IMG/VR virus record: IMGVR_UViG_2713896778_000017
Direction: 5' to 3' (one strand)
DNA length: 7,619 nucleotides
DNA from: a virus
Taxonomy: Duplodnaviria; Heunggongvirae; Uroviricota; Caudoviricetes
Shown here: one piece after another, positions 3,001 to 6,000 of the stretch
Position numbering within the stretch: position 1 is the first letter of the stretch
Layout: every line of letters starts with the position of its first letter
Position numbers: made by a program

Positions 3001-6000
3001 GGCATTCTGCTGGTTCCGTGCTGTCGTGGTGGTTCAGCGTTCACCACCGGAGCCGATGGCACATACAGTGACGCGAGTGGTGCCTCGGAGAATTCAACCC
3101 GCTGGGGTGTGGACAAGCCGCTGTATAAGGACCTTATCGGTCGAACAAAAGCAGCACTGAAGAAGAACCCGAAAAATGTGCTGTTTGCCGTGGTGTGGAT
3201 GCAGGGGGAATTTGATTTTGGCGGTACGCCGGTAAATCACGCAGCACAGTTTGGTGCGCTGGTTGATAAATTCCGTGCAGACCTGGCGGATATGGCAGGT
3301 CAGTGCGTCGGTGGCTCTGCTGGCGGNNNNNNNNNNNNNNNNNNNNNNNNNNNNNNNNNNNNNNNNNNNNNNNNNNGATGAGAACGGGGTGAATGTGCCG
3401 ACGAACAAACCGGAAGAAGACCCGGACATTCCGGGTATCGGATATTACGGTTCGAAATGGCGTGACAGCTCAGCCACCTGGACGTCACAGGACAGGGCGA
3501 GCCATTTCAGTTCATGGGCTCGCCGCGGGATTATTTCCGACCGTCTGGCAACGGCGATTTTGCGCCATGCGGGAAGAGTGGCGCTAAACGCGGGGGCATC
3601 ATCGACAGTATCAGAGGTGCGCCCGTCATCGCCTTCCGGTGCAGAAGCCACAGGCGTCACAGCACTGCTCTCTTACCTTGCCAGCGAGTCAGAGGGAAGC
3701 CTGAAAGTACAGGGATGGTCAGCCAGTGGCGGCAGGGCAGAAGTGGTCAGCGATGCGGAGGGAACCGGAGGTAAGGCAGTGAAGCTGACCAAGGAGGCCG
3801 GTAAAAGCAGCTGGGTGCTGGAGTACGCCGCGGGCAACGGTGCGGCTCTGTTACAGAAAGGGGGGCAGATTCGCTGCCGCTTTAAGGTTTCGGGAGCGCT
3901 GGCTGCGAACCAGTATGTTATGGCGTTTTACTGGCCGGTATCTTCACTGCCACAGGGCGTTGCCCTGACCGGAGACGGGGGGAATAACCTGCTGGCAGCG
4001 TTCTACATCCAGACAGATGCAAAAGACCTGAATGTGATGTACCACAATGCGAAAGTGGCGACAAACAACCTGAAACTGGGAACCTTTGGCGCATTTGATA
4101 ACGAATGGCATACGCTGGCTTTCCGCTTTGCCGGGAATAACAGCCTTCAGGTGACGCCGGTTATTGATGGTCAGGATGGCACACCGTTCACGCTGACGCA
4201 GTCACCGGTCAGTGCATTTGCGGCGGATAAACTGCATGTGACAGACATTACCAGGAATGCGACTTACCCGGTGCTGATTGACAGCATTGCGGTGGAAGTG
4301 AACAACGCGGATGCCGCGGCATGATAAAAAAAGCCGCCAGTTGCCTGAGACCTCTGGCGGTGTGAGATTCATGGAGAATCAAGGAAAGATACTACCACTT
4401 TCGTCATCGGCATTTTTAAATGAAAACTGTTTACTTAGTCAACCATAACGGTAAGAAATTATGACATTTATTCATCAGCTGATGCTGTACTTCTGTACGG
4501 TGGTCTGTGTGCTGTATCTCCTTTCGGGTGGGTACAGGGCCATGCGTGACTTCTGGCGCAGACAGATTGACAAAAGGGCCGCTGAGAAAATCAGCGCCAG
4601 TCAGTCAGCCGGANNNNNNNNNNNNNNNNNNNNNNNNNNNNNNNNNNNNNNNNNNNNNNNNNNTGGCACACCGTTCACGCTGACGCAGTCACCGGTCAGT
4701 GCCTTTGCGGCGGATAAACTGCATGTGACAGACATTACCAGAGGTGCGACTTACCCGGTACTGATAGACAGCATTGCGGTGGAAGTGAACAGCACAGACA
4801 CTGCGGCATGATAAAAAAAACGCCAGCGACAGGAATGGACGCTGGCGGTGGTGATACCTATGGAGAAAAAATAAAGGAACGATACTTTCGTACTCTGGTT
4901 TTTTAATGAAAACAGTTCTTATTGTCAACAATAACGGAAAGAAATTATGACATTTCTGAACCAGTTAATGCTGTACTTCTGTACGGTGGTCTGTGTGCTG
5001 TATCTCCTTTCGGGTGGATACCGGGCCATGCGTGACGTCTGGCGCAGACAGATTGACAAAAGGGCCGCTGAGAAAATCAGCGCCAGTCAGTCAGCCGGAA
5101 GCAAACCCGAAGAGCCGCTCATTTAGCGGCAACTTTCTTAATCACATCTTTCGACGAGAAAATCCCATGTCAGAAATTACATCCCTGGTCACTGCTGAAG
5201 CAGTGAAGGAAGTCCTGCGCTCTGAAGAAGTCCGGAGCGCACTGAAACAAAAACTTCGCCATAACCTGGAAGCGCGTCTTGATGCAGAGGTTGATGCCAT
5301 TCTGGATGAGCTGCTTGGTGTACAGGCAGAGCCACCGACTGAAGCGGGAGATACCACCGCAGAGAGCGGTGAAGTTCAGCCTGAATCACCGGTCGCCGAT
5401 GCGACTGAACCTCAACCCGAATCGGTCATGANNNNNNNNNNNNNNNNNNNNNNNNNNNNNNNNNNNNNNNNNNNNNNNNNNAGTCAGTCAGCCGGAAGCA
5501 AACCCGAAGAGCCGCTCATTTAGCGGCAACTTTCTTAATCACACCTTTCGACGAGAAAATCCCATGTCAGAAATTACATCCCTGGTCACTGCAGAGGCAG
5601 TGAAGGAAGTCCTGCGCTCTGAAGAAGTCCTGAGCGCACTGAAACAGAAACTTCGCCATAACCTGGAAGCGCGTCTTGATGCAGAAGTGGATGCCATTCT
5701 GGATGAACTGCTTGGTGTACAGGCAGAGCCACCGACTGAAGCGGGAGATACCACCGCAGAGAGCGCTGAAGTTCAGCCTGAATCACCGGTCGCCGATGCG
5801 ACTGAACCTCAACCCGAATCGGTCATGANNNNNNNNNNNNNNNNNNNNNNNNNNNNNNNNNNNNNNNNNNNNNNNNNNCTTAATCACATCTTTCGACGAG
5901 AAAATCCCATGTCAGAAATTACATCCCTGGTCACTGCTGAGGCAGTGAAGGAAGTCCTGCGCTCTGAAGAAGTCCGGAGTGCACTGAAACAGAAACTCCG

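Follow-up and report, generated by a model that had tools for sequence, protein, structure and literature searches.

This work concerns two GC-rich hairpins in a 7,619-nucleotide stretch of viral DNA (IMG/VR virus record IMGVR_UViG_2713896778_000017, Caudoviricetes; hereafter the window), which is the late region of a Shiga-toxin-2 lambdoid prophage. Each hairpin comes after the stop codon of a nanS-p-type esterase frame, and our results suggest that the two are in all likelihood the terminators of two leftward small RNA (sRNA) genes of about 80 nt, both divergent paralogues of Esr41, an Hfq-binding sRNA of enterohaemorrhagic Escherichia coli (EHEC) O157. RNAs from paralogous elements in the same slot, the spacer that follows the esterase gene, have been shown in the literature for other elements, and by homology both alleles of the window would be transcribed as well. 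The elements described here belong to a known kind of prophage sRNA; they are unannotated and, it appears, have not been named.

Probable terminator hairpins and predicted small RNA genes

The hairpin of copy 1 (4334..4360, minus strand) has a 7-bp stem (ccgccag/ctggcgg at 4334-4340/4354-4360, CCGCCAG/CUGGCGG in the RNA) and a 13-nt loop with a 3-bp inner helix, and a single C separates the stem from a U7 tail (4326..4332, minus strand; A7 on the plus strand) that begins 2 nt past the TGA stop of the esterase. Copy 2 (4821..4847, minus strand) has an 8-bp stem, CGCCAGCG/CGCUGGCG (cgccagcg/cgctggcg, 4821-4828/4840-4847), an 11-nt loop and a U8 tail (4813..4820, minus strand; A8 on the plus strand). 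Most relatives of copy 2 have U7 and one G-C pair more; a G-to-U change on the RNA strand has swapped the outer pair for a longer tail. The stems, their positions and pairing, and the difference between the loops had been described in an earlier note on this DNA and were recovered unchanged, as was the finding that no T tract follows the stems on the plus strand, the order on the minus strand being hairpin, then U run. The same note had placed A8 before both stems and had read each as a minus-strand hairpin with U8. That geometry holds for both copies, but a run of eight is found only in copy 2, copy 1 having A7 and U7.

The 45-nt minus-strand segments fold at -16.3 kcal/mol (copy 1) and -15.5 kcal/mol (copy 2), with z of -4.2 and -5.7, and none of 200 shuffles was as stable. 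A terminator scan of our own over both strands of the whole window (stem of at least 7 bp, at least 5 G-C pairs, loop of 3-15, T run of at least 7) returned these two sites alone, both on the minus strand, against a mean of 0.005 sites in shuffled windows. Both copies have on the minus strand the GC-rich stem of 5-11 bp, with a U tract of at least 6-7 directly 3' to it, that defines an intrinsic terminator, and their loops of 11-13 nt are longer than is typical for one. A stock promoter and terminator scan of the window called neither the hairpins nor the promoters, and it missed the hairpins because its loop limit is 8 nt. Two minus-strand open reading frames (ORFs) across the hairpin (4202-4372 and 4248-4382) were dismissed, since they read across the terminator and no ribosome-binding site precedes them.

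About 110 nt to the right of each U run, the minus strand carries a near-consensus -35 box. The predicted promoter of copy 1 (4414..4442, minus strand) consists of TTGACT (-35; 4442-4437), a 17-nt spacer and the -10-like hexamer TTAAAA (4419-4414), and that of copy 2 (4900..4928, minus strand) of TTGACA (4928-4923), a 17-nt spacer and TAAAAA (4905-4900). Since a consensus scan rejects these promoters, a geometry rule, in which the seventh nucleotide after the -10-like hexamer is +1 and length is counted to the end of the U run, was tried on relatives with measured ends. It gave 78 nt for PasC (published 79 nt), meeting the published 5' end (L002 2410) exactly, 85 nt for PasA (published 85 nt) and 72 nt for Esr41 (published ~70-74 nt), and it was less exact for EcOnc33, with 81 nt against a northern band of ~71 nt. 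Applied to the window, the rule predicts an sRNA gene of ~82 nt at 4326..4407 (minus strand; copy 1, A-type Esr41-like), from the predicted +1 to the end of the U run, and one of ~81 nt at 4813..4893 (minus strand; copy 2, B-type Esr41-like), with the body stretches UUCUCCAUGAAUCUCACACC (A-type) and UUCUCCAUAGGUAUCACCACC (B-type). The predicted copy 1 RNA folds at -24.6 kcal/mol (z -2.3). The promoter geometry of the window copies is common to EcOnc33 (TTGACA-17-TTAAAA), PasC, PasA and Esr41, all of them sRNAs detected experimentally.

Both copies present the layout typical of Hfq-binding sRNAs, in which a short 5' hairpin and a single-stranded U-rich stretch precede a GC-rich terminator and its run of at least 7 U, and we infer that their RNAs bind Hfq. 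The suggestion of the earlier note that a leftward small RNA starts in the spacer before the small membrane ORF is supported by the -35 boxes, by the homology of copy 2 to Esr41 and by the sRNAs found in this slot elsewhere, both of which are taken up below.

Homology to Esr41, candidate targets and other occupants of the slot

At its gathering thresholds, Rfam returned nothing at either hairpin site. A permissive scan matched Esr41 (RF02676) to copy 2 at 4812-4888 (minus strand; 30.2 bits, E 0.0013) and gave no Esr41 match for copy 1 at E up to 10; permissive matches to NsiR1, RybB and snoRNAs were discounted as chance hits, look-alikes of terminators. The esr41 locus of strain Sakai and copy 2 share TTTTCTCCAT, a CCGCC(A/G)GC...GCTGGCG stem, a T7-8 run and an ATCA tail, and a TTGACA box lies upstream of both. 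From the seed onward Esr41 reads UUUUCUCCAU-GGGGUAUUCCCU-CCGCCGGCA...UGCUGGCG-U7-AUCA, and copy 2 reads UUUUCUCCAU-AGGUAUCACCA-CCGCCAGCG...CGCUGGCG-U8-AUCA. Their predicted folds have the same order of elements, namely a 5' hairpin, an open U-rich seed, a small hairpin and the terminator, and copy 2 follows this Esr41 layout in the cmscan alignment as well as in the fold. Copy 1 keeps the seed and the terminator; its 5' hairpin is GAAAG/CUUUC, and its minimum-energy fold pairs part of the seed.

For a covariance model (R1) we took 14 relatives of types B, C and D plus Esr41 and kept the A-type out. R1 found copy 1 at 4324-4400 (minus strand) with 35.8 bits (E 1.2e-7) and copy 2 at 4811-4893 (minus strand) with 94.5 bits, the latter a score for which near-identical sequences were in the model. 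Esr41 itself scored 43.8 bits, and unrelated terminators about 17 bits or less. Therefore, both window elements are Esr41 paralogues, yet they lie outside RF02676 by the Rfam cut-off.

The candidate seed of both copies is UUCUCCAU, found at 4371..4378 in copy 1 (minus strand; ATGGAGAA on the plus strand) and at 4860..4867 in copy 2 (minus strand), where it lies within AUUUUUUCUCCAU; the Esr41 counterpart is ACAUUUUCUCCAU. It is invariant in 16 of the 17 aligned variants, the exception (L251 399-484) carrying a 2-nt insertion within the seed (TTCTCACCAT). This open stretch, common to both copies and Esr41, reads as an anti-Shine-Dalgarno sequence. Esr41 represses chuA, cirA and bfr, and compensatory mutations restore control of all three (PMC5286369); its repression of chuA acts at the ribosome-binding site (PMC9002310). 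In copy 1 the 12-mer TCATGGAGAATC (4369-4380) is a perfect complement of UCAUGGAGAAUC, positions -15 to -4 of the Sakai chuA leader, where it covers the Shine-Dalgarno sequence, and this complement occurs only once in the 40-kb chuA locus. At the chuA site Esr41 forms 9 Watson-Crick pairs, the C-type 9 and copy 2 8. The predicted duplex of copy 1 with chuA, at -26.1 kcal/mol, beats 197 of 200 shuffled bodies, and chuA may be among the targets of the window RNAs.

In the mechanism that we propose, each hairpin with its U run would be the Rho-independent terminator of an sRNA gene of ~80 nt that is read leftward, convergent with the phage late genes, from a sigma-70-type promoter of its own that lies in the spacer from the esterase gene to the DUF1378 ORF. 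The RNA would be made in the lysogen, constitutively or under some signal; its U tail would bind Hfq and its seed would pair with the ribosome-binding sites of host or phage mRNAs, making it a putative trans-acting, Hfq-dependent repressor of translation with chuA as one candidate target. The terminator might also keep antisense transcripts out of nanS-p and stx. With no U tract on its plus strand, the element would be expected to let the Q-modified late transcript pass during lytic growth. The predicted RNA would be fully complementary to that transcript, and action in cis during induction is a matter of speculation.

Other prophages hold experimentally detected sRNAs in this slot. PasA and PasC of enteropathogenic E. 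coli (EPEC) E2348/69 were both validated on northern blots; they are Hfq-dependent and have many partners in data from the ligation and sequencing of interacting RNAs (RIL-seq) (PMC8550237). PasC was mapped to NC_011601 1290909-1290832 (minus strand) (Pearl Mizrahi et al. 2021, PMC8550237 Table S6), and the adjoining esterase gene ends at 1290830, so the PasC 3' end lies 2 nt past the stop, the same geometry as at the window copies. In the same strain PasA is encoded between the esterase and holin genes, on the strand opposite to theirs. Its locus in prophage PP2 of E2348/69 (L001 2258-2500, minus strand) contains two tandem promoter-body-terminator units, PasA and an EcOnc52-like unit beside the esterase stop, and the published 'minor' PasA species of 236 nt ends at the second terminator and would represent read-through of the first. 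The order 'sialic acid esterase - PasA/PasC - holin - lysozyme' was described in genomes and phages by Zhu, Shabalina and Storz (2026 preprint), who also remarked on Rfam Esr41 matches near PasD. The window copies have this Pas location, between SASA esterase and holin-lysozyme genes on the opposite strand of a lambdoid prophage, and like the Pas RNAs they have a 3' stem-loop with a poly-U intrinsic terminator.

In strain Sakai, the slot of prophage Sp6 (L260 1693-1776, minus strand; esterase ECs_1527, then DUF1378 ECs_1528) is occupied by EcOnc33, which has a TTGACA-17-TTAAAA promoter, a body and the terminator GCCGCCGG/CCGGCGGC with U7 on the minus strand, abutting the esterase stop. EcOnc33 was recovered in all five of five Hfq datasets obtained by crosslinking and analysis of cDNA (CRAC) and measures ~71 nt on northern blot (Tree et al. 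2014), and the reads listed for it in RNase E crosslinking, ligation and sequencing of hybrids (CLASH) match the Sp6 element letter for letter, on the minus strand (Waters et al. 2017). EcOnc52, in the slot of Sakai Sp4 (L125 2509-2592, minus strand), was also recovered by Hfq-CRAC (Tree et al. 2014), and its position is confirmed by a CLASH read sequence. R1 found nothing significant at the EcOnc33 locus. The unrelated bodies of EcOnc33 and EcOnc52, with a common promoter geometry and terminator, suggest an exchangeable sRNA cassette. With EcOnc33, EcOnc52, PasA and PasC in the slot, a leftward sRNA ending at the hairpin has thus already been shown for paralogous occupants.

Conservation and competing explanations

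Elements of the window type were found in 305-306 phage records, most of them from Stx2a, Stx1a and Stx2c phages; of 5426 complete E. coli genomes, 837 (~15%) contain them, in up to 6 places per genome, and none of those found in these phage records and genomes carries a non-coding RNA feature in RefSeq. The papers on nanS-p diversity and on Stx2a expression do not mention a terminator or sRNA at this site. Among viral contigs and selected genomes, the slot holds at least four Esr41-like body types (A-D), all of which keep the -35 box, the 5' ACGAAAG motif, UUCUCCAU, the CCGCCAG/CUGGCGG core and at least 6 U (at least 7 in nearly all); phages of the O104:H4/O145 type and of the 933W/Sakai type carry different versions. 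Between copy 1 and copy 2, identity is lowest in the sRNA body (58%), against 71% in the promoter, 68% in the terminator region and 89% and 94% in flanking coding sequence. The U/A run is the exact point at which the module is fused to what lies upstream, which differs between relatives (two esterase 3' ends, a DUF6645 gene), and this variety of bodies and upstream junctions would fit a cassette whose frame is fixed and whose body varies.

Some relatives look damaged. The element of phage vB_EcoS_P22 (L254 ~425-560) has a deletion of the -10/+1 region, and at viral locus L006 a G-to-T change breaks a pair of the core stem. A strict 26-base pattern, scanned over one genome per species, gave five matches, in one E. 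coli and one Shigella chromosome and in three metagenome-assembled contigs; the last three were rejected as unrelated terminators. A B-type copy in Sakai Sp5 (L124 6086-6168, minus strand) is intact behind a 3' remnant of the esterase gene (ECs_5706), with predicted ends on NC_002695.2 at ~1,272,165 (5') and ~1,272,087-1,272,093 (3'). The Stx2-phage esterase gene of Sp5 is split there by IS629 (L124 4504-5813).

The earlier note had argued that the hairpin is conserved by compensatory changes, and this argument had to be abandoned for the two copies and largely for the subfamily. The window copies share an identical 6-bp core (CGCCAG/CTGGCG) with no double substitution that keeps a pair. Outside the core, copy 1 has one outer C-G pair more, and copy 2 forms two inner pairs at positions that are mismatched (A/A and G/A) in copy 1; what is preserved between them is a hairpin of like strength with a changed loop. 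In a model-fitted alignment of 25 distinct Esr41-like sequences 94.7% of the cells pair, and the RNAalifold covariation term for the subfamily is ~0. The proposed covariation across relatives has some basis only in the wider set that takes in Esr41, the D-type, PasA/PasC and EcOnc52, where real double changes do appear: the outer C-G pair of the Esr41-like types corresponds to A-U in PasA, PasC and EcOnc52, one inner position pairs as G-C in the B-type, PasC and EcOnc52 but as A-U in Esr41 and PasA, and a further pair goes from C-G through U-G to U-A from B to B4 to D. These events are few, and no homology of the two groups could be demonstrated beyond promoter and terminator; therefore, the case for function is carried by geometry, by homology and by what experiments have recorded for paralogues, and covariation has no part in it.

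Several results weigh against two active Esr41-like genes. In the alignment of 25 sequences the four central terminator pairs are invariant and only 4 cells are changed on both sides, changes that, as we read the sequences, stem mostly or wholly from Esr41, the most divergent member. Both copies score far under the Rfam gathering score for Esr41 (102 bits), which places them outside RF02676. R1 gave 20.5 bits for PasC and 11.9 bits for PasA, the range of unrelated terminators, with no significant likeness beyond promoter and terminator, and homology between Esr41-like and Pas-type bodies was not demonstrable at these generic-terminator scores. The predicted duplex of copy 2 with chuA is no better than those of shuffles. 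The consensus promoter scan of the window called nothing at either copy, because neither -10 hexamer has the conserved T of position 6; as -10 elements they are weak. No Hfq peak is listed at the Sakai Sp5 B-type copy, which has no EcOnc entry (Tree et al. 2014), and four B-type strings were all absent from the searched part of the RNase E-CLASH tables, where multi-copy reads may have been dropped.

The weak -10, the lack of a peak at Sp5 and of any B-type string in the CLASH text therefore make the main rival explanation one in which both elements are decaying relics of sRNA cassettes, silent or without targets in these phages. The damaged relatives (vB_EcoS_P22, L251, L006) and the outer stem pair lost from copy 2 also point this way. 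Against decay, four diverged types, in hundreds of phages and genomes, have all retained the -35 box, the seed, the core and at least 6 U, EcOnc33 is abundant in Hfq-CRAC data with the same TTGACA-17-TTAAAA promoter, and the change in copy 2 lengthens the U tail and does not destroy the terminator. We consider relics unlikely.

A second alternative is that the hairpin serves the plus strand, as a 3' stem-loop shielding the nanS-p/stx late mRNA from exonucleases or as a processing site, its minus-strand appearance being incidental. The hairpin does fold equally well on the plus strand, it stands directly after the esterase stop in every relative, and the late transcript has to cross it. This explanation leaves unaccounted for the A7-8 strictly 5' of the stem on the plus strand, with a U tail on the minus strand only, as well as the TTGACA box at a fixed distance, the conserved UUCUCCAU and the homology to Esr41, a gene with no adjoining esterase gene; moreover, the paralogous elements of the slot were detected as minus-strand RNAs. 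A purely plus-strand element is accordingly a poor candidate, with a very low probability in our judgement, and a role in stability or processing of the late transcript, which the earlier note had also raised, found no support, though it may exist as a second function. Chance palindromes, or artefacts of recombination or assembly with no RNA role, might be suspected in a scaffold of repeated prophage pieces where the module edge is a recombination junction, but the two sites observed against 0.005 per shuffled window, and the presence of the element in finished phage and chromosome sequences, already contradict this and leave it next to no credence.

If the Esr41-like sRNA genes are transcribed, the stx-nanS-p region of the clinically foremost Stx2a phages would gain a further regulatory product, expressed in the lysogen independently of toxin induction, and phage carriage could be coupled to iron/haem uptake of the host, as with Esr41. 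A wider proposal is that the spacer between esterase and DUF1378 in Stx and related lambdoid phages is a cassette slot with fixed promoter and terminator, occupied by interchangeable bodies (A-D, EcOnc33, EcOnc52, PasA or PasC), and that the window versions are functional Hfq-dependent sRNAs with the Esr41 seed; we put this forward tentatively, since taken as a whole we think it somewhat more apt to fail than to hold. If it is true, acquisition of an Stx2 phage would bring Esr41-like control of haem/iron uptake to strains without SpLE1, and control of motility and of the enterocyte effacement locus might follow too. The elements were missed by RefSeq annotation, by the Rfam Esr41 threshold and by the BLAST-based Pas survey, and a broader covariance model for the slot would improve annotation. 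That convergent Hfq-binding sRNAs occur in the lambdoid late region is a principle known since 2014 (Tree et al. 2014), and the conceptual gain is therefore modest.

Prophage setting and comparison with known systems

The window, in which genes are named after annotated homologues, contains three tRNAs (395-646), stx2A (737-1696) and stx2B (1708-1977). Directly downstream of stx2B lies a known convergent pair, STnc100 (2052-2257, plus strand; 206.9 bits) and the anti-sRNA AsxR (2260-2312, minus strand; Rfam 88.1 bits, a perfect match to the Rfam consensus). The nanS-p gene (2464..4324, plus strand), a SASA-family sialate O-acetylesterase gene whose homologues carry the annotation 'SASA family carbohydrate esterase', is broken by a 50-N scaffold gap, and its stop codon abuts the sRNA terminator of copy 1. 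Since the STnc100/AsxR pair lies between stx2B and the esterase, sRNA genes, known or predicted, stand on both flanks of the esterase gene. Downstream of copy 1 starts the small membrane ORF of the DUF1378 kind (4461..4613, plus strand; RefSeq annotation of homologues), with an equivalent at copy 2 (4947-5126). The esterase is followed by small ORFs of the DUF1378 and DUF826 kinds, then by the genes for holin and endolysin and by an antirepressor-like gene.

Five runs of exactly 50 N (3327-3376, 4614-4663, 5432-5481, 5829-5878 and 6558-6607) interrupt the window, and after each of them the sequence restarts within genes already met (the nanS-p 3' end, the DUF1378 ORF, an acidic ORF at 5167/5564/5909). 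This shows the window to be a scaffold put together from paralogous prophage contigs, whose repeated blocks are no tandem duplications. The second esterase allele, a 3' fragment (4664..4811, plus strand), comes from another prophage contig that scaffolding placed here; the two nanS-p alleles of the earlier note are thus no neighbours in a real genome but pieces separated by 50-N gaps, the second restarting within nanS-p.

Some further sites in the window were observed in passing. A terminator-like hairpin, CCCGCCGATGCGCGGG with T7, lies on the plus strand at 1-23, only ~30-50 nt after the PR' start, and the mapped tR'/StxS 3' end corresponds to a second terminator (~196-232, plus strand), near 228-232; both placements use coordinates transferred from Sy et al. 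(2020). EcOnc50 (~78 nt, destabilised without Hfq, listed on the minus strand; Tree et al. 2014) maps to ~667-735, directly upstream of stx2A, where no minus-strand terminator was seen and a plus-strand terminator stands at ~661-686. The stock scan also returned weak terminator-like sites, CGCTGATTTTCTCAGCG with GCCCTTTTGT, on the minus strand at 4596-4580 and 5082-5066, within both copies of the DUF1378 ORF; they are probably incidental.

Among known systems, AsxR and AgvB (RF02703/RF02702; Tree et al. 2014) resemble the window elements as short Hfq-binding RNAs directed against the late operon downstream of PR' in lambdoid prophages, in the layout described as a 'convergent sRNA pair at the moron site' (Tree et al. 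2014). They differ in their length of 51-60 nt, their conserved 42-nt 3' region and their position upstream of the esterase, whereas the window elements are longer, lie downstream and have no sequence in common with them. Rfam scans of 4300-4960 gave no element of the AsxR/AgvB type, so the hairpin elements do not belong to that group.

PasA and PasC are closer in architecture. They have the GCCAG/CUGGC stem core, U7, the TTGACA-N17 geometry, sizes of 79-85 nt and a terminator abutting the esterase stop. On the other hand, their bodies and proposed seeds are unrelated in sequence to those of the window copies, they stand beside another esterase 3' end, and the blastn likeness to PasA/PasC over most of the gene that Zhu et al. 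used as their criterion is absent from the window copies. A PasC query returned 28 phage records, against ~305 for the window queries, with no accession in common among the matches listed, which are samples of each. EcOnc33 and EcOnc52 likewise agree with the window copies in slot, strand, TTGACA-17-T.AAAA geometry and a U7 terminator at the stop codon, and differ in having unrelated bodies without the UUCUCCAU seed.

Esr41 (EcOnc14; RF02676) is the known sRNA that the window copies resemble in the body as well. It differs from them in its location on SpLE1, beside iha/ter and with no adjoining esterase gene, whereas the window copies lie in a lambdoid late region beside nanS-p, and it has its own 5' hairpin sequence and its own terminator loop. 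The likeness extends from the TTGACA -35 box at 17 nt from an A/T-rich hexamer, through a length of ~70-80 nt, a 5' hairpin and a single-stranded U-rich stretch with UUUUCUCCAU, to the terminator CCGCC(A/G)GC...GCUGGCG with at least 7 U and an AUCA tail, and with copy 2 Esr41 also has the small middle hairpin in common.

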